Shown in pieces: positions 16,579-44,428 of a DNA stretch of 44,428 bases. Under the pieces are notes generated by a model. The model was not told where the DNA came from and made no database searches. It was given only the letters and a program-made list of their open reading frames with translations. Origin of the DNA: Candidatus Binataceae bacterium (lineage in GTDB: Bacteria > Desulfobacterota > Binatia > Binatales > Binataceae); NCBI GenBank assembly GCA_030037595.1, contig JASHQJ010000212.1, forward strand, positions 1 through 44,428, read 5' to 3'. Each line of letters starts with the position of its first letter. The first letter of the stretch is position 1. A program made the position numbers and the translations under genes.

Positions 16579-17727
16579 CTAAACGCCGATCGCCAGTCCA
16601 ACCACTCGACCGATTGCGAATGTTACCCCCGCTGCTGCGAGGCCAATCACCAACTGACGCAGCCCGGCCGATAGCAGATTGCGTCCAGTGAAAAGCGTGG
16701 TGCCCGCGCCGACCAGGAAAAGCACCAACGCGCACAGCACGAGGCTTGCCACGATCGCCTCGGCCCCCGAGAGAAGGAAGAACGGCAGCACCGGGAAAAG
16801 CGCTCCGATCGCGAACAGCAGAAACGATGAAGCTGCGGCGATCCATGCGGAGCGGCGCAGCCGAAACGAATCGACGCGCGTTGCCTCCTTGTTTTGGGGA
16901 GCGACGCGCGAGTGCTGGGAGATCATGCGGTCCGCCATTGCAGCCGCGGCATCTTCGGTAAGTCCCTTCGCACGATATATGCGCGCGAGCTGCTCGCGTT
17001 CGTCCGTGGTCATTTGGGAAATCTCTTCAGCTCGGACCTCGATCTCATTCAAGTAGGATTCCATCGAGGTGCTCACCGACAGCCACTCTCCCATCGCCAT
17101 TGCACATCCACCGGCAACGAGGCCGGCGAGCCCGGTGACCAGGATTGCGTGCGGGTTCATCGCTGCCCCTGCAACTCCCATGACGAGGCTCAGATTCGAG
17201 ACCAGACCGTCGTTGGCACCCAGCACCGCGGCGCGAAGCGCGGTAGCCGTTCCCGTCTGATGCCGCCCCTCGAGGCGAGTCAGCGCTGCGATCGACAGAG
17301 TGGGCGCGGGCGCAGCCAAAGCTTCGATCATTCGGGCGTGAGAGCGCTCGGCGGCGGGCAGGCCGCCGGCCGCAGCCTCGGGCTGCGTATCGTAGTCGCC
17401 GCTGCCGCCGCGCTCGAGACTGGTCGCGATTGGCAGCACAAACCCCGGTCCAAACCGCCGCGCGAACCAGATTAGCGTGCGCGTGCGCCAGCGTGTCCGC
17501 AGTTCCGGTATGGGATGTCCGATCGCGGATAGGCGTTTTTTCCAGAATTCGGCATGGTCCTGCTCGAGCTCCGCCAGCCGGCGGTAAACGCTGGAAACCT
17601 CCGGTTTGGCTTCGAGTTGGGCCAATCCCTGGTAAAGCGCGATGCTGTCCACCTCGCCCTGAAGATTCGTCAGGTATCGCCTGAGGCTCTCCTCGTCCTC
17701 AAGATTGGCTTCATTCCCGCGTCTCAT
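16579..17727 (-). CDS. Ferritin/rubrerythrin-like domain fused to a VIT1/CCC1 Fe/Mn transporter
   Basis: N-terminal E..H motifs (EQDH, ERSH); RAAVLGANDGLVSNLSLVMGVAGA, MAMGEWLSV, GALFPVLPF. Confidence 0.88.
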   Translation of the reverse strand: MRRGNEANLEDEESLRRYLTNLQGEVDSIALYQGLAQLEAKPEVSSVYRRLAELEQDHAEFWKKRLSAIGHPIPELRTRWRTRTLIWFARRFGPGFVLPIATSLERGGSGDYDTQPEAAAGGLPAAERSHARMIEALAAPAPTLSIAALTRLEGRHQTGTATALRAAVLGANDGLVSNLSLVMGVAGAAMNPHAILVTGLAGLVAGGCAMAMGEWLSVSTSMESYLNEIEVRAEEISQMTTDEREQLARIYRAKGLTEDAAAAMADRMISQHSRVAPQNKEATRVDSFRLRRSAWIAAASSFLLFAIGALFPVLPFFLLSGAEAIVASLVLCALVLFLVGAGTTLFTGRNLLSAGLRQLVIGLAAAGVTFAIGRVVGLAIGV

Positions 17728-22072: not shown

Positions 22073-22486
22073 TTACTTTGCTTGCAGGCTCTCGACGTAG
22101 GTCACGATCGCGTCGATTCTTTTCTTCACGGCGGCGTCACTCGCAGGATTGAATCCTTCGCCGGGATTCTGAAGCTTGACCGCGAAAAACGGCATCTCTA
22201 GCCGCTCATGAGAAGGGATTGCCTTGCGGCCATCCACGATGTCAACGACTTCATCGAACGGAAACTTGCCGCCGTGCAATGCCGCAAGCAGGGTTATGTC
22301 TGCCGGCTTCGTGGACATGCCGATCGTTTTATTCGCAGGACCATTACCCTTGCCGTCGGCACCGTGACAGTCGGCGCAGTAGGTATCATAGTCCTGCTTG
22401 CCGGATTGCGCCGCCGCAATTGAGAAGGAAGCTGCGATGACGGTCGCCAGGAGTGCCCCGCCGACGAGGTATCTTCGACGGTTCAT
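22073..22486 (-). CDS. Monoheme c-type cytochrome
   Basis: Signal peptide MNRRRYLVGG...AAAQ; CADCH; distal EMP; GAGGAGG RBS; ATGA overlap with the upstream gene. Confidence 0.88.
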   Translation of the reverse strand: MNRRRYLVGGALLATVIAASFSIAAAQSGKQDYDTYCADCHGADGKGNGPANKTIGMSTKPADITLLAALHGGKFPFDEVVDIVDGRKAIPSHERLEMPFFAVKLQNPGEGFNPASDAAVKKRIDAIVTYVESLQAK

Positions 22487-22869
22487 CCCTCCTCGTCTCC
22501 ACCGGTAATTTCTTCTTCGCCGCCCGCCGGCCCTCTCGGCGCACGCGACTTCACGTCGCGGCGAAGTTCGCGCAGATGGTCCTCGAGGCGCCGCCGCGCA
22601 GCGTCGAATGCCTCTCTGATCGCCACCGGGAGGTCTTCCGCGTGTTGCTTGTTGATCGATATTTCTGCCTGGGGCGTTCGGAGATCGATGCGGACTTTGA
22701 ACGGACCGCCGCGGCGATGATGATGAACCGCCGGCGCTTCGAGCACCACGTGGCACCCGGTGAGCCGTCCGAAGTATTGTTCCAGGGCTGCGGCATGTTG
22801 CTCGATCGTTGTGCGAATCGCGTCCGTCAACTCGAAGTCGCGCGAAGTAATTTGAAGAGGTCGTTGCAT
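22483..22869 (-). CDS. HPF/RaiA family ribosome-associated protein (short form)
   Basis: MQRPLQITSRDF, LTGCHVVLEAP..HHRRG..F.VRIDL, EDL.VAIREAFD.ARRRLED. Confidence 0.85.
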   Translation of the reverse strand: MQRPLQITSRDFELTDAIRTTIEQHAAALEQYFGRLTGCHVVLEAPAVHHHRRGGPFKVRIDLRTPQAEISINKQHAEDLPVAIREAFDAARRRLEDHLRELRRDVKSRAPRGPAGGEEEITGGDEEG

Positions 22870-29117: not shown

Positions 29118-30621
29118 TCGCGCGCGCCGCCTGACTGGTAGCGGTAAGTCCGAACTGTTCGGCATGCTCGTGCTTTCTTGCTTCATTGCCGGATGCGCAG
29201 TTGGGCCCGATTTCGTCCGTCCCGCCGCTCCCACAACGCAGCGCTACGACAGTGGCGAGCAGCCGGCGAGCACCATCGCGACCGTCGGCGGCGCCCAGCG
29301 CTTCGAATACAGAGTGGAGGTCGCATCGGACTGGTGGAAACTGTTCGGCTGCCCCAAGCTCGACGGCTTGATTCTGCAAGCCACCGCAAACAGTCCGACG
29401 CTGCAATCCGCAGAGGCTGCACTGAAACAAAGCGAAGACAATCTGCGCGCCGGCTATGGAATCTTCTTTCCTCAACTGAGCGCCAGTTTCCAGCCTACGC
29501 GCCAGCAGTTCTCGCCGGTTCGTTTTGGTGAAAATGTATCGCCGAGCATCTTCAGCCTCTACACGCTCTCCACCACGGTTTCTTACACGCTCGATGTCTT
29601 TGGCGGAGAGCGACGCACGGTGGAAAGCCTGAGCGCGCAGGCCGATGTGCAGTATTACAACGCGATCGGCGCTTATCTGACCTTGTCCGGTAATGTGGTC
29701 AACGCGATTGTGGCGGAGGCCTCCTATCAAGCTGAAATCGATTCGACCGAACACCTCATCGGATATCTTCAGGAGCAGGAGAGGATCACCGCTGCTCAAG
29801 CCAAGGCCGGGATAGTGCCTTACTCAAATCTGTTGAGCATCCAGACTCAGCTGGGAACGACCGAGGCAACCCTGCCGCCGCTTCGTCAGCAACTCGCCCA
29901 TACGCGTCATTTGCTCACGACGCTTGCGGGCAGATCTCCTGGAGAAGACTGGGCGCCGCCGCGGGTCTCGTTTGCCGAACTCACGCTTCCGAATCAGATT
30001 CCGGTCAGCCTGCCCTCCGATTTGGTCCGTCAGCGTCCGGATATCCAGGTCGCCGAAGCTCAACTGCACAGCGCGAGCGCGCAGATCGGCGTCGCGACTG
30101 CCGCGATGCTGCCGAGTTTCACGCTCAACGCCAACTATGGCTTGAACAGCACATCGCTTTCCAGCTTGTTCGGAAGCAGCGCTGAGTTTTGGACCTTGGG
30201 CGCGGGCCTTGCGACGCCACTGATCCAGGGACCTACGCTCTGGTATCAGCGCAAGGCGGCGATCGACGCCTACCAACAGGCGCTCGCAAACTACAGGCAG
30301 ACCGTACTCGCGGCTCTCGCCCAGGTGGCCGACGCGCTCGACGCCCTCCAGCACGATGCTGAGGCTGTCAAGGCAGAATCCGAGGCGCTCAATAGCTCAG
30401 CGGAGAACTTACACCTTATCGATGCAAACTACCGGGCAGGGACGGTCAACTACCTGCAAGTCTTGATTGCCGACTATCAATACGAGCAATCGCAGATTGG
30501 CTATATCCAGGCCTTGGGACAGCGCTATCAAGATACTGCGGCGCTATTCGTCGCCCTGGGCGGTGGTTGGTGGGCAGCTCCACAAAATGGCAGCAGCTCG
30601 ACGCTGCCAGTCAGCTACTAA
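29095..30621 (+). CDS. Outer membrane efflux lipoprotein (NodT/OprM/TolC family); start uncertain
   Basis: Lipobox IAGC-AVGPDF, WW..F, SLPSDLVRQRPDI..AE..L, ALGGGWW. Confidence 0.92.
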   Translation: MYTSRENNRARRLTGSGKSELFGMLVLSCFIAGCAVGPDFVRPAAPTTQRYDSGEQPASTIATVGGAQRFEYRVEVASDWWKLFGCPKLDGLILQATANSPTLQSAEAALKQSEDNLRAGYGIFFPQLSASFQPTRQQFSPVRFGENVSPSIFSLYTLSTTVSYTLDVFGGERRTVESLSAQADVQYYNAIGAYLTLSGNVVNAIVAEASYQAEIDSTEHLIGYLQEQERITAAQAKAGIVPYSNLLSIQTQLGTTEATLPPLRQQLAHTRHLLTTLAGRSPGEDWAPPRVSFAELTLPNQIPVSLPSDLVRQRPDIQVAEAQLHSASAQIGVATAAMLPSFTLNANYGLNSTSLSSLFGSSAEFWTLGAGLATPLIQGPTLWYQRKAAIDAYQQALANYRQTVLAALAQVADALDALQHDAEAVKAESEALNSSAENLHLIDANYRAGTVNYLQVLIADYQYEQSQIGYIQALGQRYQDTAALFVALGGGWWAAPQNGSSSTLPVSY

Positions 30622-32009
30622 CGAAGCCCGTGTTTGTTGAGCAGGCGATGCAGCGTCTTGCGGTCGACGCCCGCTTTGCGCGCAGCCTCTGATACGTTGC
30701 CACCCTCGCGCTTCAAGAGGTCTGCGACGTAGGCCGCCTCGAGCTCACCGATCCATCGTTCTTTGGCTTCTTTCAAGGTCAGCTTGCTGGCTGATTCCGC
30801 ATCGATCGGAGCCGCGCTCGCCGGCTGCTGGACCGGCGCTCTCAGCTGCTGCGGCAGCTCTGCGAGAGTAATCATCTCGCCGTCGGCAAGAGCGCATGCC
30901 CGCTCGACCACGTTTTGCAGTTCGCGCACGTTGCCGGGCCACGAGTACGACTCGAGCGCCGCCATAGCCTCAGGCTCGAATCCCCTTACCGACGCCTCGC
31001 CGCTTTTGCCATACTTCCGCAAAAAGTTAATCGCGAGCAGCTCGACGTCGCCGGCGCGTTCGCGTAGCGGCGGCAGTGCAACATCGATCACGTTTACGCG
31101 GAAGTATAAGTCCTCGCGAAATTTGCCGGCTGTGACGAGCGCACGCAAATCGCGATTCGTGGCAGAAACGATGCGCACGTCGATATCGATCTGCCGCGTA
31201 CCACCGATGTGCCGGATCTGCCGCTCCTGGAGTGCGCGCAGCAGTTTGGCCTGCAATCCGATCGGGAGCTCGCCGAGTTCGTCAAGAAACAACGTGCCGT
31301 GATGGGCGGATTCCATCAGCCCTTGCTTCGCATTGATCGCACCGGTGAAGGCGCCTTTTTCATGTCCGAATAATTCGGATTCGAGCAGGTTTTCCGGCAG
31401 CGATGCGCAATCGACGGGCACGAAGGGCTGCGCGGCGCGCGGGCTGTTGGCGTGAATCGCACGAGCGATTAGCTCCTTGCCCGTGCCCGACTCGCCGAGG
31501 ATCAGGATGTTGGCCTCGCTGCGCGCCGCCTTGCGGACCAGCTCGAGCACCTGCTGTAACGCGGCGCTCTGGCCGACGATGTTTTCGAAACCGAAAATGC
31601 CCTGGAGTTGCTCGCGCAAATTCAGATTTTCGAGTTCGAGGCGACGCTTGGTGAGCGCTCGCGCGACAGTAAGCCTCAACTCATCGTTGGTGAAGGACTT
31701 GGACAGGAAATCGAACGCGCCAGCCTTTACCGCCGCCACTGCGGATTCAAGCGAGGCGTGACCGGTCAGCATAATGACCGGCATCTGCGGATCGATCTTC
31801 CGCGACCGCTTGAGCATCTCCATGCCATCGAGTTGGGGCATGCGAAGATCCGTCAGAAGCAAATCGGGATGCTCGGATTCGAGCAGGTGCAGGGCTTCCT
31901 CAGGCTCGGTGGTCGAGAGACATCGATAGCCGGCGGTTTCCAGGATGCGCACCCAACTCCTGGCGACATCTGGATCATCATCGAGAATAAGAATTCGTTC
32001 AGTTGCCAT
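30618..32009 (-). CDS. Sigma54-dependent response regulator (NtrC family: REC-AAA-HTH)
   Basis: LTDLRMP, GESGTGKE, ESELFGHEKGAFTGA, FLDE, REDLYFR, WPGNVREL, Fis-type HTH; start ATG 32009. Confidence 0.95.
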   Translation of the reverse strand: MATERILILDDDPDVARSWVRILETAGYRCLSTTEPEEALHLLESEHPDLLLTDLRMPQLDGMEMLKRSRKIDPQMPVIMLTGHASLESAVAAVKAGAFDFLSKSFTNDELRLTVARALTKRRLELENLNLREQLQGIFGFENIVGQSAALQQVLELVRKAARSEANILILGESGTGKELIARAIHANSPRAAQPFVPVDCASLPENLLESELFGHEKGAFTGAINAKQGLMESAHHGTLFLDELGELPIGLQAKLLRALQERQIRHIGGTRQIDIDVRIVSATNRDLRALVTAGKFREDLYFRVNVIDVALPPLRERAGDVELLAINFLRKYGKSGEASVRGFEPEAMAALESYSWPGNVRELQNVVERACALADGEMITLAELPQQLRAPVQQPASAAPIDAESASKLTLKEAKERWIGELEAAYVADLLKREGGNVSEAARKAGVDRKTLHRLLNKHGLR

Positions 32010-32037
32010 CGCGACCCTGCCGCTCAACTTTACGAAG

Positions 32038-33105
32038 CTAGTCCGACGCTCCGGCCGCGGGCAACTTGATGGTGAAAGTCGTGCCTCTTCCGAGTTCCGA
32101 CTGCACCTCAATTCTGCCGTTGTGCTCCTGAATGATGCGGCGGCTCATCCAGAGCCCGAGGCCGGTGCCGCTCTGTTTGGTCGTGTAGAGGAGGTCGAAT
32201 ATTCTTTTCAGCGCGTCGGGTGAGATCCCGGGTCCTGTGTCGGCGATAGTTAGATGTAGCCATCCGGGGGAGTCGCTCGGTTCGCGGCTCACAATCGTCA
32301 CCGCGCCTCCCTGCGGCATGGCGTCACGGGCATTGCTCAGCAGGTTGATCAACACGCGTTCAAGCGCCGTTGCATCTCCCATGATTTGTGCAACACCGCC
32401 GTCCAACTCGGTTCGGACGGCGATGCCCGTCTTGCGCATCTGCTCACCAATCAACAGCAGCGTGTTTTCCACCAGCTGATTGATATCGAGCGGCGCGACG
32501 GCTTTCTCGCGCTGCCGCGAAAGTTCGAGAAATCCCTCGATTATGCGGCTCGCCCGTTCCGCCTGCCGATGGATAGTGGCGAGATCTTCATTCAGTTCGC
32601 ATGCAGGCGTCGAAGGCGGCGATTCCAGAACCAATTCCGAGCGCGAACGAATCACCTGCAGAGGGTTGTTGAGGTCGTGCGCGATACCGGCAGCGAACGT
32701 GCCGAGCGTGATCACCGTCTCGGCCCTTCGCGCCTCAGTTTCCAGCGCGAGGCGTTGGCTGATGTCAGTGACTGCAGCCACCACCAGGTGGCCGCGCGAG
32801 GTGCCGCGCGCATATGTCAAGCCGATCTCGATTGGAAACTCGCTGCCGTCCTTGCGCCGTCCCGCGAGGCTGAGGCCGATGCCCATGGCACGGGTGCGGG
32901 GCGCCGCGAAGTAATCCTCGACATGTTTGCGATGACGCTCGCGGAGTGCGGTCGGTAAGAGCAGCTCGATCGGTTCGCCCACCAGTTCTTTCGGTGAATA
33001 ACCAAAGAGCCGTTCGACCTGGCGGTTCACTTCCAGAATCGATCCGCCGCGGTCAACAACTATCAGGCCTTCACTGGCAGCTTCGAAATACTCCTTGTAC
33101 GGCAC
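32038..33105 (-). CDS. Cytoplasmic PAS sensor histidine kinase (FixL-like PAS)
   Basis: LLP..LRERH...GRRKDGSEFPIEI PAS; AHDLNNPL H-box; NLLSNARDAM, DTGPGI, GTGLGL; no TM segment. Confidence 0.92.
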   Translation of the reverse strand: MPYKEYFEAASEGLIVVDRGGSILEVNRQVERLFGYSPKELVGEPIELLLPTALRERHRKHVEDYFAAPRTRAMGIGLSLAGRRKDGSEFPIEIGLTYARGTSRGHLVVAAVTDISQRLALETEARRAETVITLGTFAAGIAHDLNNPLQVIRSRSELVLESPPSTPACELNEDLATIHRQAERASRIIEGFLELSRQREKAVAPLDINQLVENTLLLIGEQMRKTGIAVRTELDGGVAQIMGDATALERVLINLLSNARDAMPQGGAVTIVSREPSDSPGWLHLTIADTGPGISPDALKRIFDLLYTTKQSGTGLGLWMSRRIIQEHNGRIEVQSELGRGTTFTIKLPAAGASD

Positions 33106-34720: not shown

Positions 34721-35401
34721 ATGGTTGCTGGTCTTCTTCCAGAAAATGTCACGTCCTTTGGCGGCCAGATAGATTGGGTCTTTACACTGATTTTCTATGT
34801 GGTCGGATTCTTCTTCGTTGTAGCCGAAATTCTGCTCGTCTACTTCGCCCTGCATTATCGGCGAGGTCGCGTGAAGCATGCGATCTACAGCCGCGGCGCC
34901 AAGCTTCGCGAAGCCGCATGGGTCCTTATTCCCGCGGCAGTGGTGCTGATCTTCGACCTGGCAATCGATGCTGCTGGGCATCGCGCCTGGGCGCTGGTCA
35001 AGGAAAATCCGCCGCAGGCCGAGCTCGAGGTCAAAGTCACGGCCAAGCAGTTCAACTGGAACTTCACGTATCCGGGGAAGGACGGAAAGCTTGGTGGCGC
35101 AAATGATTTGACATTTGAAAACGAGCTTCACGTTCCAGTCGGCAAGGTTGTTCGCGTTGTTCTGAACTCAGAGGACGTCATCCATAGTTTTTGGGTGCCG
35201 AACTTCAGGCTTAAACAGGACGTTGTTCCAGGCCGCAGAATCGTGGCGTGGTTCAAGGCAACAAAGACGGGCTCTTATGAGATCGCGTGCTCGGAGCTCT
35301 GCGGCTTTGGTCACTACTCGATGCGGGGCGTCGTGATCGTTCAATCCGAATCCGACTATGCGCGGTGGCGCGCAGAAGCTTTAGCGGGCGGAGCCAAATA
35401 G
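34721..35401 (+). CDS. coxB: Cytochrome c oxidase subunit II (CuA; no fused cytochrome c)
   Basis: 2 TM, QFNW.F.YP, DVIHSFWVP, CSELCGFGHYSM. Confidence 0.95.
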   Translation: MVAGLLPENVTSFGGQIDWVFTLIFYVVGFFFVVAEILLVYFALHYRRGRVKHAIYSRGAKLREAAWVLIPAAVVLIFDLAIDAAGHRAWALVKENPPQAELEVKVTAKQFNWNFTYPGKDGKLGGANDLTFENELHVPVGKVVRVVLNSEDVIHSFWVPNFRLKQDVVPGRRIVAWFKATKTGSYEIACSELCGFGHYSMRGVVIVQSESDYARWRAEALAGGAK

Positions 35402-35417: not shown

Positions 35418-37154
35418 ATGTCAACTGCTGTTGCCGTCAGTTCCGTAGATCATGACGCGCGTGCGCACGAACATGAATTGGGCTTTGTGCGGCGCTACAT
35501 TTTCTCGGCCGATCACAAAGTAATCGCCAAGCAGTACATGACCTTGTCGGCGCTGATGGCGCTTATCGGCGGTGGATCGAGCTACCTGATTCGATGGCAG
35601 CTTGCATGGCCCGAAACGTCGATCCCTGGGTGGGGGCCGATAGGGCCGGACGACTATAACGCGCTCATCACCATGCATGGGACGATCATGGTGTTCTTTG
35701 TCGCGATGCCGCTGTTGCTTGGTGCGTTCGGCAACTACCTGATCCCGCTGATGGTCGGCGCTGACGATATGGCTTTCCCTCGCTTGAACGCGTTGTCCTT
35801 CTGGACCCTGTTTACGGCTTCCAGCGTGCTAATCGCCTCGTTCTTCGTGCCTAACGGCCCCGCGGCCGCGGGGTGGACTGGATACGTACCGCTGTCAGAT
35901 AAGGCGGTCTATACCGGAGTTACCTGGGGCCAGAATCTCTGGATCATCGCACTGGCGCTCGAATTTGCGTCGTTTCTCATGGGCGGCGTCAACTTCCTTG
36001 TTACCGGCCTCAACCTGCGCACGCGCGGAATGACCTTGATGCGCCTGCCGCTTCTGGTCTGGATGGAGTTGACCGCGGCTGTGGTTTTTCTACTCTCGGT
36101 CGGGCCGCTGGTGGCGGGAGCTATTATGCTCCTCCTCGACCGCACGATGGGCACGGGATTTTATCAGCCCGATCGTGGCGGCGACCCTCTCCTCTGGGAG
36201 CATCTCTTCTGGTTCTTTGGCCATCCGGAGGTTTACGTCGTGGCTCTGCCAGGATTCGGAATCATGCTAGAGGTGATTCCCGCCTTCGCGCGCAAGCCGA
36301 TCTTCGGCTACCGAATGATGGTCTATTCGACGATCGGCGCCGGTCTGCTGAGCTTCATCGTCTGGGCGCATCACATGTTTGTCTCTGGGATGGATCCGCG
36401 CCTGGCCAGCCCTTTCAGCGTCACGACGATTATGATTTCGGTGCCGTTCGCAATCATCCTCTTCGCGATGATCGCAACGTTGTGGGGCGGATCAATTCGT
36501 TTGGCTTCGCCGATGCTATTCGCGCTTGGCGGCGTCGCAACCTTCCTCATTGGCGGCGTGACTGGAATTTTCCTGGGTTCGGCAGCGGTCGATATCGTAA
36601 TGCACGGAACTTATTTCGTTGTCGCGCACTTTCACTACACCCTGTTCCCGGTAGTGTTCTTCGGCGGCTTTGCCGGCATCTACTTCTGGTTCCCGAAGAT
36701 GTTCGGCCGAATGATGAACGAAGCCCTGGCTCAGATCCATTTCTGGATTACGTTCGTGTCCTTCAACGTCGTATTCATTCCATTGTTCCTAGTGGGTCTG
36801 GGCGGGAGTCCGCGGCGAATCTACGAGCTATCGTCCTATGACTCGTTGAAGCACCTGCAGCCGTTGCACGTTGTTGCTACTATCGGAGCAATCGTTCTGT
36901 TGCTTGCCCAGGTGCCGTTCATCATCAACTTCTTCTATTCGCTCGCGCGTGGACCGCGAGCGGAGCGAAATCCCTGGCATGCTAACACGCTCGAATGGAC
37001 CGTAGATTCGCCACCTCACCATCCGAACTTCGCTCGGCCTCCGCGAGTGTATCGTGACCCTTACGAGTACAGCGTGCCGGGCGCGCTCCATGACTTCATA
37101 CCCCAGGATGTCGCGCCGGACGAACCAGTCGATGTTAAGGCGGTGGCAGATTGA
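35418..37154 (+). CDS. coxA: Heme-copper oxidase subunit I, A1-type motif
   Basis: DHKVI, TMHGT, DMAFPRLN, WFFGHPEVY, WAHHMF, VVAHFHY, PRRIY. Confidence 0.97.
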   Translation: MSTAVAVSSVDHDARAHEHELGFVRRYIFSADHKVIAKQYMTLSALMALIGGGSSYLIRWQLAWPETSIPGWGPIGPDDYNALITMHGTIMVFFVAMPLLLGAFGNYLIPLMVGADDMAFPRLNALSFWTLFTASSVLIASFFVPNGPAAAGWTGYVPLSDKAVYTGVTWGQNLWIIALALEFASFLMGGVNFLVTGLNLRTRGMTLMRLPLLVWMELTAAVVFLLSVGPLVAGAIMLLLDRTMGTGFYQPDRGGDPLLWEHLFWFFGHPEVYVVALPGFGIMLEVIPAFARKPIFGYRMMVYSTIGAGLLSFIVWAHHMFVSGMDPRLASPFSVTTIMISVPFAIILFAMIATLWGGSIRLASPMLFALGGVATFLIGGVTGIFLGSAAVDIVMHGTYFVVAHFHYTLFPVVFFGGFAGIYFWFPKMFGRMMNEALAQIHFWITFVSFNVVFIPLFLVGLGGSPRRIYELSSYDSLKHLQPLHVVATIGAIVLLLAQVPFIINFFYSLARGPRAERNPWHANTLEWTVDSPPHHPNFARPPRVYRDPYEYSVPGALHDFIPQDVAPDEPVDVKAVAD

Positions 37155-37190: not shown

Positions 37191-37796
37191 ATGGGTGCAG
37201 GCATTCAGACTATCGTTCAGCGGGACGAATACGACGATACGATTCGTCGTATTCCGCCCGGCAAGATGGCGATTTGGTGGTTTCTTGCCTCCGAAATCAT
37301 GTTATTCGGCGGGCTGATTACGGCGTTCGTGCTGTTTTCGTTCGCCTCCCACGGTGCATTTGCTGCAGATGCAAAGCACGTGCAATGGCGGCTCGGAGCT
37401 GTCAACACACTGGTTCTGGTGACGTCCAGCCTTACGATGATTCTGGCGTTAGGTTACGCGCGCGCGCACAATCTGGCACGCACTCGTCTATTCTTGTTGA
37501 TAACAGTACTTCTAGGACTGACCTTCCTCGGTATCAAGTCAATCGAATATACAACCGAGATTCGTGAAGGGTTCACGCCGGGCACAAGTCTTTTCTGGTC
37601 ATTCTACTTTGGGATGACTGGGTTACACGCCTTGCACATGATCGCGGGCATCATCATCAACTCATTCCTTCTCGTGGCAGCGCTCAGAAAAAAACCGTGG
37701 GACTTTCTTGAGCGAAGACTAGAGTTAGGCGGACTCTATTGGCACTTCGTTGACGTTGTCTGGATATTCCTGTTTCCACTGCTGTACCTGACCTGA
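37191..37796 (+). CDS. coxC: Cytochrome c oxidase subunit III (short form)
   Basis: FLASEIMLFGGL, NTLVLVTSS, TGLHALH, YWHFVDVVWIFLFPLLYL. Confidence 0.93.
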   Translation: MGAGIQTIVQRDEYDDTIRRIPPGKMAIWWFLASEIMLFGGLITAFVLFSFASHGAFAADAKHVQWRLGAVNTLVLVTSSLTMILALGYARAHNLARTRLFLLITVLLGLTFLGIKSIEYTTEIREGFTPGTSLFWSFYFGMTGLHALHMIAGIIINSFLLVAALRKKPWDFLERRLELGGLYWHFVDVVWIFLFPLLYLT

Positions 37797-37806
37797 CAGA
37801 AAGAAG

Positions 37807-38115
37807 ATGACTAACACTCCGAGTACGGATACATCAGAACGTAGTGAGAATTCTCTCTACTTTATCGTATGGGTCTGGCTGGTTGTACTGCTTGCAGTCG
37901 GTCTGTCTTTGTTTGGTCTGCCGATCCCGCGTCAAGTGGCAGTCGCGTTGATCTTTTCGGTAGCGGCGATCAAGGCGGCCCTTGTCCTTCGAAATTACAT
38001 GCACCTCAAGCACGAGCACTTTCTGATCTATCTGATAGTCCTAGTACCGCTGCTTTTCTTTCTGGGTTTCGCGTTGGCCCTCGTGCCCGATCTCGTATTC
38101 CGGCACGCGATGTAG
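37807..38115 (+). CDS. Cytochrome c oxidase subunit IV family protein
   Basis: Y..VW..L, IKAALV...YMHLKHE; 3 TM; follows subunit III. Confidence 0.88.
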   Translation: MTNTPSTDTSERSENSLYFIVWVWLVVLLAVGLSLFGLPIPRQVAVALIFSVAAIKAALVLRNYMHLKHEHFLIYLIVLVPLLFFLGFALALVPDLVFRHAM

Positions 38116-38117
38116 CG

Positions 38118-38360
38118 ATGGCAGCGTCATTAAACCGTATTGGTGCATGGTGCATTGCGTTCACGGCGATCGTTTTGGCGCCGCGCTTCGCCTACGCCTG
38201 TGCGAGCTGTTTTGCTGCATCGAGCAGCGCGGGTCTGCGAGCATATTACCTGAGCACCGTAATATTGACGTTGATGCCTTTCGTACTGATCGCGGCGATC
38301 GGCCTCGTGGCTTACAAATCGAGGCAGCGAGGATCGACCGCGAAAAGTTGTCCCGACTGA
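38118..38360 (+). CDS. Small membrane protein with signal peptide, CxxC and one TM (80 aa)
   Basis: MAASLNRIGAWCIAFTAIVLAPRFAYA-CASCF...YYLSTVILTLMPFVLIAAIGLVAY; starts 2 nt after the subunit IV stop. Confidence 0.7.
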   Translation: MAASLNRIGAWCIAFTAIVLAPRFAYACASCFAASSSAGLRAYYLSTVILTLMPFVLIAAIGLVAYKSRQRGSTAKSCPD

Positions 38361-38443: not shown

Positions 38444-38857
38444 ATGTCCAACCGAACTTCGATGCTCATCGCATCGGTGCTGCTCCTCTCGCTGGCCGGT
38501 CGTGGATTCGCTGCCCAACCGTCCGGCGCGCAAGAATTCACGACGTTCTGCGCTCGATGTCACGGGTCGGACGCTACCGGCAATGGGCCGGATGCCGGCG
38601 AGAAGCAAGGCTACTGGCCTGCGAATCTGACACTGATCGCCAGGAGCCATGGCGGCAAATTCCCCCGGCAGGAGATCTACGACATAATCGACGGTGGAAA
38701 GCGCTTGCCCGGCCACTACAATTTCGACAGTCCCATGCCGCTCTGGGGATTGAGCTTTCAGCTCAAAGGCAAGGAATATAGCGAGCAGAGCGAAGCGGCG
38801 GTACGCGCCAGAATAGAGGCACTCGTGGACTATCTCGAATCGATTCAGAAGAAGTAG
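38444..38857 (+). CDS. Monoheme c-type cytochrome
   Basis: Signal peptide, CARCH, PANLT, HGGKFP, PMP.WG; start ATG 38444. Confidence 0.88.
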   Translation: MSNRTSMLIASVLLLSLAGRGFAAQPSGAQEFTTFCARCHGSDATGNGPDAGEKQGYWPANLTLIARSHGGKFPRQEIYDIIDGGKRLPGHYNFDSPMPLWGLSFQLKGKEYSEQSEAAVRARIEALVDYLESIQKK

Positions 38858-38905: not shown

Positions 38906-39517
38906 CTACTCTTGCATGATCGGCGCGGTCGGAAAGTTCTGGTCGAGGACGAGGTTTAGTTCCAGTACATTTACCCGCGGCTCGCCAAAGAGCCCGAGGT
39001 CGCGGCCGGTCACATGTTTAGCGATCAGCTCTGTCAACTTCTTAACCGAGATTCCTCGAGCGGCAGCGACGCGCGGAGCCTGGATCAAAGCGTTCGCGAC
39101 CGTAATATCGGGATCGAGTCCGGAAGCCGAAGTCGTAAGCATGTCAGCCGGAAGTTTCTGGACCCTTAGCTTTGGCTGCGCGAGGTCAAGTCTCTCGCGA
39201 TCAGTCGATAGACGCTGCCATAGCTCTTTGCTTGTCGGTCCGAGATTCGAGCCGCCGGAGGACGAGGCATTGTAAGGTTTGGCCGGCGTCGCGGACGGTC
39301 GGCCATGAAACCATTGCGGCCCGCTCCAATTCTGTCCGACGAGGGCCGATCCAATCACGACGCCGTCTGAATTTCTAATAAGGCTGCCGTTCGCGCGAAA
39401 CGGGAACAGGGCCTGGGCAAGTGCGGTAGCGGCCAGTGGATAAATGATGCCGCACAGTACCCAACTGACCAGCGAGAAGCGAATCGATCCCGCGATGATT
39501 TCTCGAATTGGTTTCAT
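38906..39517 (-). CDS. kdpC: K+-transporting ATPase subunit C
   Basis: ANGSL, GSALVGQ, FHGRPSA, SGGSNLGP, TSASGLDPDI, EPRVNVLELNL. Confidence 0.95.
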   Translation of the reverse strand: MKPIREIIAGSIRFSLVSWVLCGIIYPLAATALAQALFPFRANGSLIRNSDGVVIGSALVGQNWSGPQWFHGRPSATPAKPYNASSSGGSNLGPTSKELWQRLSTDRERLDLAQPKLRVQKLPADMLTTSASGLDPDITVANALIQAPRVAAARGISVKKLTELIAKHVTGRDLGLFGEPRVNVLELNLVLDQNFPTAPIMQE

Positions 39518-41655
39518 CCAAGGAAAGTAGTCAGCAAAACGTCAATTATCTTGATACCCACGAAAGGCGCGATTAATCCGCCTACGCCGTAAACCATCAG
39601 ATTCCTGTAGAACGTCGCTTCGGCGCTGATGGCTCGAAACCGAACGCCGCGTAGAGCCAGCGGGATCAAACTCGGAATAATCAGTGCGTTGAAAATCAGC
39701 GCTGAAAGCACCGCGGTCTGCGGAGTGGCCAGATGCATTACGTTGAGCGCTGACAGACCCGGCAACGCGACGATGAACATGCCTGGGATAATTGCAAAGT
39801 ATTTCGCGACATCGTTTGCGATCGAAAAAGTGGTGAGCGCGCCGCGCGTTATCAGCATCTGCTTGCCGAGTGCGACGAGATCGATCAGCTTTGTTGGGTC
39901 CGAGTCGAGATCGATAAGATTGGCTGCCTCCTTGGCCGCCATGGTTCCGGAATGCATCGCTAGTCCGACGTCCGCTTGGGCCAGTGCCGGCGCGTCATTC
40001 GTTCCATCGCCGGTCATAGCCACGAGGCGCCCCCGACCTTGCTCCTCACGAATTATGCGGAGCTTGTCCTCCGGCTTTGCCTCCGCGATAAACCCGTCGA
40101 GCCCACCTTCCCTGGCGATGGCGCGGGCGGTCAGCGGATTGTCGCCCGTTATCATCACGCTACGGATTCCGATATTGCGTAGTTGTGCAAGGCGCTCTCG
40201 GATGCCCGGCTTCAACACGTCGGCCAACCGCACGATGCCAAGGATTTCGCCGTCCATCGAAACCGCGAGCGGAGTGGCTCCATCTTGAGCGATCACGCCA
40301 ACAGTTCCCTCGAGATCGCGAGGCGGGACTGCATTGAATCTTTCAGCGACGTGCTTTACGACCGCTTCGACCGCACCTTTGCGCACGACATGTCCGTCGG
40401 GCAGGTCAACTCCGCTCATGCGCGTTTGCGACGAAAAATCAAAACGCTGCGCGCGTTCGAGTTGACCGTCAGATCGCGCGCCCAATTTCTCGGCTGACGC
40501 GACGATAGTCTTGCCCTCCGGAGTTGTGTCGAAGGCGGACGCCAAGTACGCGGCTTGAACAAGCTTATGTGCCGGAACTCCGGCGAGTGGAATGAACTCT
40601 GTCGCCTCACGATTCCCAACGGTAATGGTGCCGGTTTTATCGAGCAGGATGGTCTGAATATCGCCCGCCGCTTCGACTGCCTTGCCGGACATCGCGATGA
40701 CGTTGAAACGCGCTGTGCGATCGATGCCGGCGATACCAATTGCCGAGAGCAGCGCGCCGATAGTGGTCGGAATCAGCGCAACCAGGAGTGCGATCAGATC
40801 CGCGATGTTGATCCTGGCGTGCAGATAGAAGGCCACCGGCGCCATCGCCGCGACTACGATCACGAAGATCAGCGTCAGTATCGAGAGCAGAACCGTGAGT
40901 GCGATCTCGTTAGGTGTCTTCTGGCGTCGCGCGCCTTCGACCAGGTGAATCATGCGATCAAGAAAGCTCTCACCCGGATTAGCGCTGACCTTTATTAACA
41001 ACTGGTCGGAGATTATGCGGGTCCCGGCCGTTACCGACGAAAAGATATCGGTGCCAGGCTCTTTAAGCACCGGTGCAGCTTCTCCGGTGATCGAGGATTC
41101 ATCGACATAAGCGGTGCCATCCATCACTTCTCCGTCTGAGGGAATGACATCGCCGCGATCGATGCGAATCAAATCACCCTTGCGCAAAGCATTCGCGGGA
41201 ACTTCCTCCACGTTACCCGTCCGCATAGCGAGGGCGCTTGAAAACATCCCGTCGCCGCTGATGCTGATGCGCCGCGCCTTGAGTTCGGTCTTGGTTTGGC
41301 GGAGCGTGGCGGCTTTTGCTTTGCCGCGGCCTTCCGCGATGGCCTCGGCAATATTTGCGAACCACACCGTCAGCAACAAAATGATCGTGACGGCGGCGTT
41401 GTATCCGACCGAAGCGTCGGATGGACCGAACAGCGCTGGGTCCAAAGTAAGCGCGGCCGTGACAATTGCCCCGAGAAATACAACGAACATGACGGGGTTG
41501 CGAACCTGCAGGCGCGGATCGAATTTTTTCAACGATTCCAGCAAAGCCTCGAATACCAGAGCTCGGCTGTAAGGACTCTCCGCAATCGGCCGCATGAGTT
41601 CGTGCGCAGACATCGTGCGTCGGCCCAGTTCTCGACTCTCCATCGCCATGCGCAT
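39514..41655 (-). CDS. kdpB: K+-transporting ATPase subunit B (P-type)
   Basis: NPVMF, LIPTTIG, DKTGT, KGA, TGDN, MTGDGTNDAPAL, TFSIANDVAKYFAI. Confidence 0.97.
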   Translation of the reverse strand: MRMAMESRELGRRTMSAHELMRPIAESPYSRALVFEALLESLKKFDPRLQVRNPVMFVVFLGAIVTAALTLDPALFGPSDASVGYNAAVTIILLLTVWFANIAEAIAEGRGKAKAATLRQTKTELKARRISISGDGMFSSALAMRTGNVEEVPANALRKGDLIRIDRGDVIPSDGEVMDGTAYVDESSITGEAAPVLKEPGTDIFSSVTAGTRIISDQLLIKVSANPGESFLDRMIHLVEGARRQKTPNEIALTVLLSILTLIFVIVVAAMAPVAFYLHARINIADLIALLVALIPTTIGALLSAIGIAGIDRTARFNVIAMSGKAVEAAGDIQTILLDKTGTITVGNREATEFIPLAGVPAHKLVQAAYLASAFDTTPEGKTIVASAEKLGARSDGQLERAQRFDFSSQTRMSGVDLPDGHVVRKGAVEAVVKHVAERFNAVPPRDLEGTVGVIAQDGATPLAVSMDGEILGIVRLADVLKPGIRERLAQLRNIGIRSVMITGDNPLTARAIAREGGLDGFIAEAKPEDKLRIIREEQGRGRLVAMTGDGTNDAPALAQADVGLAMHSGTMAAKEAANLIDLDSDPTKLIDLVALGKQMLITRGALTTFSIANDVAKYFAIIPGMFIVALPGLSALNVMHLATPQTAVLSALIFNALIIPSLIPLALRGVRFRAISAEATFYRNLMVYGVGGLIAPFVGIKIIDVLLTTFLG

Positions 41656-41667
41656 CGAGCCTGCTGA

Positions 41668-43398
41668 TCAGAAGAGAAGCCCCCGTCGCATCGCCAAGAA
41701 CTCGGAGATCGGACCGAGAATGAGCGCGGGAAAGAACGCGAGCGCGCCGACGATCAGAATCACCGCCAGCCAGAAGATCCCGAATTGCAGCGTATCGGTA
41801 CGTAAGCTGCCAACGCTGGGAGGCGAGGTCGGTTTGGCAGCCACCGAGCCTGCCACCCCCATCATGAAAATTATCGGTGGATAGCGTCCAATCAGGATTA
41901 CGATACCGAGCGCGAGGTTGTACCAGATGGTGTTGCTGTTCAACCCGGCGAACGCCGACCCGTTGTTAGCTGCGGTTGACACGAATGCATACAAGACTTC
42001 CGAATAACCGTGCATCGCGGCGTTTCCAAGGGAGGAGACGCCGAAGGGCATCACCATTGAGAACGAGGAGGGCGCCAGCACTATCAAAGGATGAATCAGC
42101 AAGGTGAGCGAAACCAGAATGATTTCAGCTCGCTCGATCTTCTTACCCAGGAATTCCGGCGTCCGCCCAACCATCAATCCGGCGACGAAGACCGCAATGA
42201 GTCCGTAAACAAGTGCATTGAGAAAGCCAACGCCCTTACCGCCGAACACACACTGCAGCATCATCCCGAACAGGGTCGGAATACTGCCGAGGGGAGTAAG
42301 GCTGTCATGCATCGTGTTGACGCTTCCAGTGGTGAAGGTCGTTGTGACGGTTGCAAAGAGACTGCTCGAAGCAATTCCGAAACGAACTTCCTTTCCTTCC
42401 ATGTTGCCGCCGGGCTGTGTCGGCGTTGCCGCAGTTTCGATGCCGGCGCGAGTAAGCGTAGTCGTACCCGACTGCTCAGGAATCACCGCCAGCGGCAGCA
42501 TCGCGAGCAACATCGCACTCATAACGGCGTAGAGCACCCACGCCTGGCGGCGATTTGAAATCATCTCGCCAAATGCGATAACGATGGCGGCGGGCAGGCT
42601 CATCATCAGCACCGTCAACAGCACGTTGGTCGCCGGCGTGGGGTTCTCGAACGGATGCGCAGCGTTGGCGTTGAAGAAGCCCCCGCCGTTGGTGCCCAGA
42701 TGTTTGATCGATTCGAAGGCCGCCACGGGACCCATGCTGATCGTTTGCAGGCCGCCCTGGATCGTGTGCGCCACCACACTGGTGGTGAGAGTTTGCGGGG
42801 CGCCTTGCCACACCAGGAACAGTGCGAGCAGAAACGTCGGTGGGAGTAGAACGCGGGTCAGAAGGCGCGTCATGTCGCGATAGAAATTGCCGAGATTGGC
42901 GCCGCCGTCGGTCACCACGAAGGCCCGGATAAACGCCATCGCGACCACGAATCCCGTCGCGGCTGAGGTGAACATCGGAAACGTGATCGCCGCCATCTGG
43001 CTCAGGTTCGAAAGCGATGTTTCGCCGCCATAGCTCTGCCAATCCGTATTCGTCATGAAGCTGATCGCGGTGTTGAATGCGAGCATCGGCTCCATGCCAG
43101 CAAAATGGCGCGGATTGAGTGGCAAATGACCCTGCGCGACGAGAATCAGGAAAACGATCAAGAGCATTACGAGGTTGGTGGCGAGCACGTGCAGGGTGTA
43201 GGTTTTCCAGTTCATCGGCATCGCGGCCAGCTCGCGGCCAGTGAGCCGATAAATCAGGTTGTCAATGGGGTCGAAGATCGGGTCAAAGAGGGTCTTTCGA
43301 TCCATGAACACGCGGCCGAGGTAGCGCCCCGCCGGTACGCTGACGAAAAAAGCAATCGCCAGGGTTGCGGCGATTTGCAGCCAGCTCTGCGCGGTCAT
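41668..43398 (-). CDS. kdpA: K+-transporting ATPase subunit A
   Basis: SFMTNTDWQSY, LGTNGGGFF, MEGKEVRFG, GLMVGRTPE, ANNGSAF; start moved to ATG 43398 (ATGA overlap). Confidence 0.96.
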   Translation of the reverse strand: MTAQSWLQIAATLAIAFFVSVPAGRYLGRVFMDRKTLFDPIFDPIDNLIYRLTGRELAAMPMNWKTYTLHVLATNLVMLLIVFLILVAQGHLPLNPRHFAGMEPMLAFNTAISFMTNTDWQSYGGETSLSNLSQMAAITFPMFTSAATGFVVAMAFIRAFVVTDGGANLGNFYRDMTRLLTRVLLPPTFLLALFLVWQGAPQTLTTSVVAHTIQGGLQTISMGPVAAFESIKHLGTNGGGFFNANAAHPFENPTPATNVLLTVLMMSLPAAIVIAFGEMISNRRQAWVLYAVMSAMLLAMLPLAVIPEQSGTTTLTRAGIETAATPTQPGGNMEGKEVRFGIASSSLFATVTTTFTTGSVNTMHDSLTPLGSIPTLFGMMLQCVFGGKGVGFLNALVYGLIAVFVAGLMVGRTPEFLGKKIERAEIILVSLTLLIHPLIVLAPSSFSMVMPFGVSSLGNAAMHGYSEVLYAFVSTAANNGSAFAGLNSNTIWYNLALGIVILIGRYPPIIFMMGVAGSVAAKPTSPPSVGSLRTDTLQFGIFWLAVILIVGALAFFPALILGPISEFLAMRRGLLF

Positions 43399-44428
43399 CC
43401 TTTCACGCTCGAGGCTGTGGATATCGGCCGCACTATCAGGCGGCCGATGCGGCTGCGATTGACCTCGGCAACCTGGAAATCCCAATCGCCCCAGACGAAC
43501 CGTTCCCCAGGCTGCGGCAAATGGCTAAAGCTAGAGAGTGCGAAGCCGCCCAGCGTAACGAAGTCTCCCGGCGGCGGCGATGCAGCCCGCAATATTTTGA
43601 GGACCTCGTCCATTGGTGTTGCCGCATCGAGCACCATTGAACCATCGTCATGGCGGATAACTTTGGCCACCGAATCGCCTTCTACCTTTGGCAGGTCGCC
43701 TGCGACCGCTTCGAGCAAATCGGTACGTGTCACGATCCCCTGGATACTGCCAAATTCGTCGACGACCAGCGCTTCGTTGACGGGGGTGCCGCGAAAGAGA
43801 TCAAGTGCCCTCAAGATGGAGGTTCGCTCCGGAACCACCAGGGGAGGGCGTACGACTTGCTCGAGGTTTGTCTCCTGCCCACGCAGGACTTGATCGAGCA
43901 AATCCTGCTTGCGCACGATCCCAACCACCTCGTCGATCGAGCCGCGGCTTGCCAGCAGCTGAGCATAAGGACAGCCTCCGATCTTGTTCAGAATCACGTC
44001 GCGCGAGTCTTCGAGGTCGATCCAGATCACTTGCGGCCGGGGGGTCATAATAGATCGCACCGGCGCGTCCTCCAGCTCGAGAACGCCCTCGATCATGTCG
44101 CGCTCGATAGGATGGATGACGCCGAGTTTGGCGCCCTCGGCGATTATGCTATGGATGTCTTCCTCAGTGACGGTCCGCTGAATTCCGGTCCGCAGACCAA
44201 TGCGCCCCAGCACGAAGTTGGTCGAATGGTCCAATAACCAGATGATCGGTACACACGCACGAGCGAGTAACGAAAGCGCAGGCGCTAATCTAGCAGCGAT
44301 CTCTTCAGGAAACTGGAGCGCTAGCTGCTTTGGCACGAGCTCGCCGAGAACAAGCGAAAGATAGGTCGTCGCGCCGGCTACGATAACAATCGCTACCGGC
44401 GTGGCGTAGGGCGCAACTCCTGAGTACT
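43395..44428 (-). CDS. Hemolysin-family CNNM(DUF21)-CBS-CorC protein (5' end outside window)
   Basis: Frame open to the window edge: LSLVLGELVPKQLA, IMTPR, VVDEFGSIQGIVTRTDLLEAVAGD, TLGGF. Confidence 0.92.
   Translation of the reverse strand, partial: YSGVAPYATPVAIVIVAGATTYLSLVLGELVPKQLALQFPEEIAARLAPALSLLARACVPIIWLLDHSTNFVLGRIGLRTGIQRTVTEEDIHSIIAEGAKLGVIHPIERDMIEGVLELEDAPVRSIMTPRPQVIWIDLEDSRDVILNKIGGCPYAQLLASRGSIDEVVGIVRKQDLLDQVLRGQETNLEQVVRPPLVVPERTSILRALDLFRGTPVNEALVVDEFGSIQGIVTRTDLLEAVAGDLPKVEGDSVAKVIRHDDGSMVLDAATPMDEVLKILRAASPPPGDFVTLGGFALSSFSHLPQPGERFVWGDWDFQVAEVNRSRIGRLIVRPISTASSVKG

Follow-up and report, generated by a model that had tools for sequence, protein, structure and literature searches.

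The window analyzed here, the whole 44,428-nt stretch of contig JASHQJ010000212.1 (forward strand) from the Candidatus Binataceae bacterium assembly GCA_030037595.1, carries a coxBACD cytochrome oxidase operon whose subunit I, CoxA, has hydrophobic residues at four K-channel positions, including that of the channel lysine (K362 in Rhodobacter sphaeroides numbering). We propose that this enzyme is probably a working, accessory aa3-like cytochrome c:O2 oxidoreductase from a distinct clade of the A family, which has lost the canonical K pathway and would draw its protons through the D channel. It has long been asked what makes A-family oxidases depend on two proton inputs and what keeps the D channel of the model enzymes from supporting the reductive half-cycle, a question studied so far mostly with crippled point mutants. 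The clade described here is a natural, strongly conserved enzyme in which the full A1 pumping apparatus is kept and the Lys pathway appears to have been erased in both subunits.

K-channel positions of the window CoxA

Full-length CoxA scores 488.1 bits against Pfam COX1 (PF00115; cut-off 34.8) and matches solved subunit I chains in the PDB with a best E-value of 4.5e-128 (5.8e-126 for R. sphaeroides 1m56_A, and only 1.6e-16 for ba3 chains). A HMMER segment search aligns window residues 290–430 with 1m56_A positions 305–445 (helices VII–X) without a gap and at an offset of +15, which rules out misalignment as the cause of the absent lysine; a second segment search aligns residues 95–300 with positions 110–313 of the R. 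sphaeroides chain. The resulting map bears out what an earlier note on this DNA had read from the letters, namely the substitutions T359F, K362I, S365A and S299L over 36220–36490, a span that does run from helix VI to helix VIII, and the canonical K-channel positions are left without a polar side chain.

The features that define an A-family subunit I are present in the window protein: six His ligands (H87, H269, H318, H319, H404 and H406), the helix VI Tyr (Tyr-I) and the D channel, with Y273 as the predicted cross-link Tyr. It also carries the mark of the A1 subtype, the HPEVY Glu atop the D channel (E271); A2 enzymes are marked by its absence, with a Tyr(-Ser) motif taking over its function. 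The A-type K channel, given in Paracoccus denitrificans numbering as Lys354, Thr351, Ser291 and Tyr280 in the accessible part of its source (PMC3084760), is missing, with I347, F344 and L284 at the Lys, Thr and Ser positions and the Tyr alone kept. The marks of the B family are absent: such enzymes have no D channel and an alternative K channel with Thr/Ser/Tyr at the same positions, whereas the window enzyme has a D channel and only hydrophobic residues there. Absent, too, are those of nitric oxide (NO) reductases, namely loss of the Tyr and/or FeB-type Glu ligands and, in cNOR and qNOR, a lack of conserved cytoplasmic channels (PMC11214002).

Compared with the canonical A1 aa3 oxidases (R. 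sphaeroides 1m56; P. denitrificans 1ar1 and 1qle), the window enzyme has the same fold, length, six His ligands, Tyr, E286 and D-channel entry, together with a CuA-bearing subunit II and subunits III and IV. It departs from them in the K channel (S299L, T359F, K362I and S365A), elsewhere in subunit I (S197E, S201F, G327S, A351T, A356S, D412G, W366M and H472F) and in an operon that includes an extra small CxxC protein. The change at D412 makes the Mg-site pair HG instead of HD (G397 = D412), in agreement with the earlier note; in addition, V423 is replaced by T408. The claim that the D channel is intact holds for the entry residues, whereas the upper part is altered, with E182 at S197 and F186 at S201. 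S197 is counted among the D-channel residues, and G327 and A356 among those lining the K channel (PMC10341450).

The best PDB match to the helix VII–X segment is the R. sphaeroides K362M mutant (3om3, E-value 1.3e-41), which ranks first because it, too, is hydrophobic at 362. The mutant, however, carries a single engineered change, whereas the natural enzyme shows coordinated changes that involve two subunits and are held by purifying selection. Turnover of the model enzyme all but ceases once Lys362 is lost, and the K362M enzyme is nearly inactive.

Conservation and descent of the Lys-less clade

In a search of 5.8 billion proteins, the best 120 clusters were 69–92% identical to CoxA, and the 119 of at least 500 aa were aligned. 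All 119 have Phe at T359 and Glu at S197. The K362 column is divided among Leu (45), Ile (43) and Met (31), the S299 column holds Leu in 110 clusters (Met in seven, Cys and Phe in one each), the S365 column Ala in 91 (Ser in 24, Cys in four) and the D412 column Gly in 110 and Asp in nine. The helix VIII pattern is thus not a product of chance, as F359, I/L/M362 and E197 recur in 119/119 of these nearest clusters.

A wider alignment of 414 sequences, grouped by helix VIII, separates the window clade (131 rows) from a sister Lys-less clade (39 rows) and two Lys-bearing groups (107 and 79 rows); the 131 rows include one archaeal sequence, P0166, which was caught by the grouping rule and is the sole row without an acid at S197. 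Within the window clade the heme and CuB His ligands, Y288, E286, N121, D132, N139, S142 and N207 are each found in 131/131 rows (H333 in 130/131), so that the six His, the cross-link Tyr and E286, reported as intact for the window, are near-invariant throughout. The K362 column remains hydrophobic (Ile 50, Leu 44 and Met 35 of 131), as does S299 (Leu 114, Met nine and Phe two as its top three residues). Invariant catalytic residues combined with consistently hydrophobic K positions point to purifying selection on a working enzyme and not to decay.

Several further columns distinguish the clade. An acid (E/D) stands at S197 in 130/131 rows and Phe at S201 in 125/131; overall, 138/228 Lys-less rows have an acid at S197 as against 0/186 Lys-bearing rows, although the bulk of the 138 belongs to one lineage. 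Ser at G327 is universal in the window clade (131/131) and in the sister Lys-less clade (39/39), whereas the Lys-bearing groups are mixed (G54/S46/A7 of 107 and G61/S17 of 79). The two Lys-less clades likewise share A356S (131/131 and 39/39), A351T (128/131 and 39/39) and Glu at the H300 column (127/131 and 39/39). H472F (129/131) and V423T (130/131) are close to fixed in the window clade, and the D412 column holds Gly in 113 and Asp in 18 of its rows. Ala replaces E286 in 22/107 and 10/79 of the Lys-bearing relatives and in none of the window clade. One unrelated Lys-less representative (P0234, 527 aa) combines Ala at the E286 column with Glu at the S197 column, which hints that position 197 is able to host a proton-shuttling acid.

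Subunit II provides a second line of evidence. The Glu at the K-channel entrance, E101(II), corresponds to CoxB E64, and a His five residues before that column fits the list of H96, L100 and E101 given in PMC10341450; in the chain alignment 6ci0_B has Ala at the same column. Across 27 operons of the window clade this position is Gln in 18, Glu in seven and another residue in two, whereas all 23 Lys-bearing sister operons have Glu. Such relaxation from Glu to Gln in the partner subunit may be taken as independent support for abandonment of the pathway, at any rate in its Lys-type form. The CuA motif (C-x3-C-x3-H-x2-M) was found in every clade CoxB. The carboxylates of the Mg site follow an either/or pattern in 16 fetched loci (L173–L188), in which HG (once HA) accompanies C[ST]ELCG and HD accompanies CSQLCG, such that one of the two acidic Mg-site ligands is absent from each; the window has HG with CSELCG.

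Lysine loss is frequent in this part of the family. A scan of 1.84 billion representatives at 50% identity gave 20,339 matches at E ≤ 0.001, and the best 150 of these have Lys in 90 cases, another residue in 57 and a gap in three. A FastTree phylogeny of 212 rows (139 with Lys and 73 without) requires nine changes of state, at least eight of which are forced by well-supported branches. Both samples (57/150 and 73/212) were picked for nearness to the query and are not frequencies for the A family as a whole. Together with published precedents, these counts indicate that the rarity implied by the earlier note was overstated.

The window falls in a clade of 24 rows that all lack Lys (FastTree support 100). 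An adjacent clade of 16 rows, also entirely without Lys and with the helix VIII sequence IPSVIIL, comprises Verrucomicrobiota, Acidobacteriota, Planctomycetota and other metagenome-assembled genomes (MAGs). The two are nested in a group of 116 rows (support 99) whose other members have the Lys (VPSAIKTFNW), and the absence of Lys is hence a secondary loss. With eight distant Lys-bearing rows as root, a 63-row IQ-TREE quick tree recovers each Lys-less clade with a support of 100 and the superclade with 99. The union of the two Lys-less clades received a support of 87 in FastTree and 55 in the IQ-TREE quick tree, and we do not claim a single shared loss; they have in common S327, T351, S356, F472 and the small ORF (open reading frame) described below.

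The closest Lys-bearing relatives (45–56% identity; Bacteroidota, Acidobacteriota, Planctomycetota, Verrucomicrobiota and a copy on contig C496 of the window's own genome) share N- and C-terminal features and the superclade (support 99) with the window CoxA, but keep S299, S359, K362 and N365, as well as the subunit II Glu (23/23), and show neither an acid at S197 (0/107) nor a CxxC ORF (0/69). Environmental data are rich in the sister Lys-less clades, whose protein clusters reach 861 members, so that Lys-less oxidases are no curiosity of acidophiles; no cultured carriers of the sister clade are named among the 120 clusters listed. Members of the clusters of ten other Lys-less representatives carry MAG names only (Euryarchaeota, Hydrothermarchaeota, Anaerolineae) or none.

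Among named proteins, those nearest to CoxA come from Binataceae and Binatia MAGs. Sixteen of 60 other Binataceae genomes have a match at 63% identity or above; the denominator includes three unpublished genomes (G010, G027 and G028) counted there only. All 16 fetched loci have a Lys-less helix VIII and E/D at the S197 column, and 14/16 have the small CxxC ORF downstream; close orthologs thus share the changes and do not retain Lys. The window genome (88.7% complete, 7.4% contamination) encodes a second Lys-less subunit I on contig C190 (L004, 1159–2880, + strand), which is 64% identical and has the helix VIII sequence IPFALMLFAT. This copy shows Asp at S197 and retains HD at the Mg site, and the E101 column of the accompanying CoxB is Gln, with CSQLCG as part of its CuA motif. 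The genome has a further three A-family subunit I genes with the Lys, on C267, on C496 (adjoined by a heme A synthase gene) and as a I+III fusion that we read as split over C80 and C99. These other A-family oxidases and the patchy occurrence in Binataceae (16/60) mark the Lys-less enzyme as an accessory isoenzyme.

The small ORF after coxD encodes an 80-aa protein with a hydrophobic N-terminus, an invariant A-C-x-x-C-[FYW] motif, one transmembrane helix and a basic tail (21 homologs aligned). It has no Pfam or NCBIfam match, and its nearest Atlas clusters are "hypothetical proteins" from Myxococcota, Verrucomicrobiota and Binatota. Among loci with at least 2,200 nt downstream of coxA, it occurs in 4/7 of the window clade and 15/23 of the sister Lys-less clade; neither the Lys-bearing loci (0/69 and 0/5) nor those of other Lys-less groups (0/7) have it, so that in this sample it is limited to the two Lys-less clades. 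An extra subunit and a periplasmic metal-handling factor are both candidate roles. A complex prediction with CoxA and CoxB gave no answer (score 0.00) and is evidence in neither direction.

Proposed proton supply without the Lys pathway

The most economical reading of these patterns, as we infer from sequence comparison, would be an enzyme served by the D channel only. Electrons would enter through CuA in subunit II, and O2 would be reduced at an ordinary heme–CuB–Tyr site. All substrate and pumped protons would pass through the D channel, which is invariant in the clade, and a second carboxylate, E182 (S197), beside the gating Glu E271 (E286) could act as an extra relay or store for the two reductive-phase protons that otherwise come from Lys362. 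The hydroxyls of S312, T336 and S341 (G327, A351 and A356) may keep a water cluster under the cross-linked Tyr, whereas the lower K path and the subunit II entrance would have been abandoned. Candidate compensating changes are transplantable to the R. sphaeroides or P. denitrificans enzymes, in two sets: S197E with S201F, and G327S, A351T and A356S.

Several observations weigh against this proposal. Because the model enzyme is nearly inactive without Lys362, compensation of some kind must exist, and its nature is inferred only. The placing of E182 relative to E271 depends on homology with R. sphaeroides S197, which lies one turn of the helix from S201. In the sister Lys-less clade, 38/39 rows have Leu at S197, so the extra Glu is not required for life without the Lys and cannot be the whole answer. 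The window and six other clade operons, a minority, retain the subunit II Glu. CoxA also scores below the cut-off of the NCBIfam equivalog model TIGR02891 (CtaD_CoxA; 628.8 bits against 670.75), and no RNA sequencing runs are listed, the six rows listed being DNA runs from two studies.

A more specific form of the D-channel reading, which we regard as tentative and somewhat doubtful, is a two-glutamate, single-input A1 oxidase in which the acid at S197 lets the D channel deliver the reductive-phase protons and the small clade-specific membrane protein, with its CxxC at a periplasmic N-terminus, is a new subunit or metal-insertion factor for oxidases of this type. If this were true, one gain-of-function residue would explain how the second channel could be dispensed with, and the design would be widespread in soil phyla.

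Alternatively, the K pathway may have been rebuilt, with S312, T336, S341, E285 and further lower residues or a partner subunit carrying the reductive-phase protons and two input channels retained. This is the best-supported of the alternatives, since hydroxyls are gained at or near the upper K wall in both Lys-less sister clades (G327S, A356S and A351T), Glu at the H300 column is near-universal in both, and the window retains the subunit II Glu; we nonetheless consider it unlikely. Positions that are polar in A-, B- and C-family channels (S299, T359, K362 and S365) are here Leu, Phe, Ile/Leu/Met and Ala, the Lys column drifts among Ile, Leu and Met (50/44/35) as expected of a lipid-like filler, Gln replaces the entrance Glu in 18/27 clade operons, and a clade-specific scan yielded no conserved polar residue for the lower half of such a route. 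A small subclade (L013, L014, L097 and P0121, from Gemmatimonadaceae and Polyangiales MAGs) has the helix VIII sequence VPIAE[LM], with a Glu one residue before the lost Lys; it speaks for a rebuilt path, and the Glu may be a different solution to the loss.

An altered chemistry or energetics is improbable. The enzyme might then be a slow O2 scavenger, reduce peroxide or NO, or take its chemical protons partly from the periplasm and conserve less energy. Model enzymes without the K path are blocked in the reductive half-cycle, and the K362M enzyme can still react after reduction and retains a peroxidase-type activity. Within the clade the Mg-site Asp is Gly in 113/131 rows, and the window gene is an accessory paralog next to three canonical oxidases in its genome. 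The active site, however, is that of an O2 reductase, with three CuB His and the cross-link Tyr invariant and no FeB-type Glu pattern, and so lends no support to the altered chemistry entertained in the earlier note; full conservation of D132, N139, N121 and E286 speaks for protons being taken up from the cytoplasm and pumped. NO reductases did evolve repeatedly from O2 reductases, but the named families derive from the B and C families and not from A, according to the accessible part of PMC11214002.

A decaying or non-functional copy is scarcely credible: four near-essential residues are gone and the genome has other oxidases, yet the frame is open, the operon is intact, the pattern is the same in 119/119 nearest clusters, the most distant at 69% identity, and recurs at 16/16 orthologous Binataceae loci, and the catalytic residues are invariant over the 131 clade rows, which vindicates the earlier verdict of "not decay".

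Published Lys-less oxidases and the gene neighborhood

Loss of the channel Lys is itself already in print. In the accessible part of a 2020 preprint (10.1101/2020.03.01.968255), the COX1 of acidophilic Fe(II) oxidizers is described as having Ile in place of the Lys, with the subunit II Glu also exchanged; relatives are placed in Thioclava and in Actinobacteria and Chloroflexi MAGs, and the group is assigned to A2 and said to branch deepest in the A family. In that work, a non-conservative exchange of E78 (P. denitrificans numbering), the entrance Glu of subunit II, is a mark of the Lys-less oxidase of Fe(II) oxidizers (Degli Esposti et al.). The journal version (PMC8239418), so far as its accessible text goes, counts seven independent K-channel losses among archaeal enzymes. 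The available part of a further preprint (10.64898/2026.01.22.701106) reports an oxidase without a K channel in Ferrigenium straubiae (Gallionellaceae) and leaves its meaning open. According to the accessible text of PMC2754497, Fe(II) oxidation in Acidithiobacillus ferrooxidans uses the aa3 enzyme as its working terminal oxidase, and this enzyme has been reconstituted in vitro.

As these partly available sources describe them, the Lys-less oxidases of the Acidithiobacillus rus-operon (CoxBACD), Thioclava and F. straubiae resemble the window enzyme in having a hydrophobic residue at the Lys position and a conserved D channel. They differ in the subunit II entrance Glu, which is substituted in the Fe(II)-oxidizer type, whereas E64 is kept in the window and Gln is found in 18/27 operons of its clade. 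By description they would differ also in descent, the Fe(II)-oxidizer type being reported as A2 and deepest-branching and the window clade keeping E286 and lying inside a Lys-bearing superclade. The window clade is set further apart by the extra Glu at S197, the CxxC companion and its occurrence in non-acidophile, soil-type phyla, which go unnamed in the accessible account of the Fe(II) oxidizers.

The literature searched contains no mention or biochemistry of the window clade, although relatives may be among the Lys-less sequences listed in fig. S7 of PMC8239418 and in supplementary figs. S9–S11 of the 2020 preprint; by that measure the clade is not one already characterized, and we regard it as an undescribed variant with specific, testable compensating features. 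The Binatota genome paper states only that complex IV and ACIII are present (PMC8262859). Close relatives of CoxA are publicly named "cbb3-type cytochrome c oxidase subunit I" although they belong to the A family, and such labels, combined with the missed NCBIfam equivalog, mean that surveys of respiratory capacity may misclassify oxidases of this kind.

The coordinates of the oxidase cluster and of the residues discussed above are collected in table 1. CoxB passes the NCBIfam TIGR02866 cut-off (165.3 bits against 147.7), matches Pfam COX2 and aligns to R. sphaeroides 1m56_B.

Table 1. Genes and residues of the Lys-less oxidase cluster in the window. Residue equivalences (=) refer to R. sphaeroides subunit I unless stated otherwise.
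Feature	Position (nt)	Strand	Residues and basis
coxB, subunit II	34721..35401	+	226 aa; two transmembrane helices, CuA cupredoxin domain, without fused cytochrome c
CoxB E64, equivalent of K-channel entrance Glu E101(II)	34910..34912	+	window "...klreaaw" vs 1m56_B "...spl-eiaw"
CoxB CuA motif	35288..35323	+	CSELCGFGHYSM; read in translation
coxA, subunit I	35418..37154	+	578 aa; A-family, Glu-bearing (A1-like); second gene of compact cluster
D channel	35733..35993	+	N106=N121, D117=D132, N124=N139, S127=S142, N192=N207; R. sphaeroides alignment
Helix IV, remodelled stretch LEFASF	35958-35975	+	E182=S197, S185=S200, F186=S201; R. sphaeroides alignment
HPEVY	36222-36236	+	aa 269-273; read in translation
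Helix VI	36222..36272	+	H269 (CuB ligand), E271=E286, Y273=Y288, L284=S299, E285=H300; aligned to R. sphaeroides
Helix VII	36351..36374	+	S312=G327 (K-channel-lining position), CuB ligands H318 and H319; aligned to 1m56_A
Helix VIII residues	36423..36491	+	T336=A351, T337=T352, S341=A356, F344=T359, I347=K362, A350=S365, M351=W366; gap-free 1m56_A alignment
Helix VIII stretch	36441-36491	+	VPFAIILFAMIATLWGG; aa 342-358; read in translation
Mg-site pair	36603..36608	+	H396-G397 at H411-D412; aligned to 1m56_A
coxC, short subunit III	37191..37796	+	201 aa; Pfam COX3; NCBIfam QoxC, CtaE and CyoC models below cut-offs
coxD, subunit IV	37807..38115	+	102 aa; Pfam COX4_pro 36.0 bits (cut-off 28.9)
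Small CxxC ORF	38118..38360	+	80 aa; directly after coxD
Small mono-heme c-type cytochrome	38444..38857	+	137 aa; CARCH; Pfam Cytochrom_C 21.8 bits (cut-off 21.3)

The 137-aa cytochrome c is a candidate electron donor to the oxidase; in a relative with 85% identity (L011), no cytochrome c gene is listed just 3' of coxD, in a rough ORF listing of a kind unreliable in GC-rich DNA. Just upstream of the cluster, the other strand encodes a PAS histidine kinase and a sigma-54 response regulator (30618–33105) and, beyond them, an M50/CBS peptidase; kdpCBA follows just downstream (38906–43485, - strand). Elsewhere in the window, a separate c-type cytochrome of 227 aa is encoded at 22073–22756 (- strand), and a protein with a VIT1 iron-transporter domain, whose N-terminal rubrerythrin-like match is weak, at 16579–17727 (- strand).

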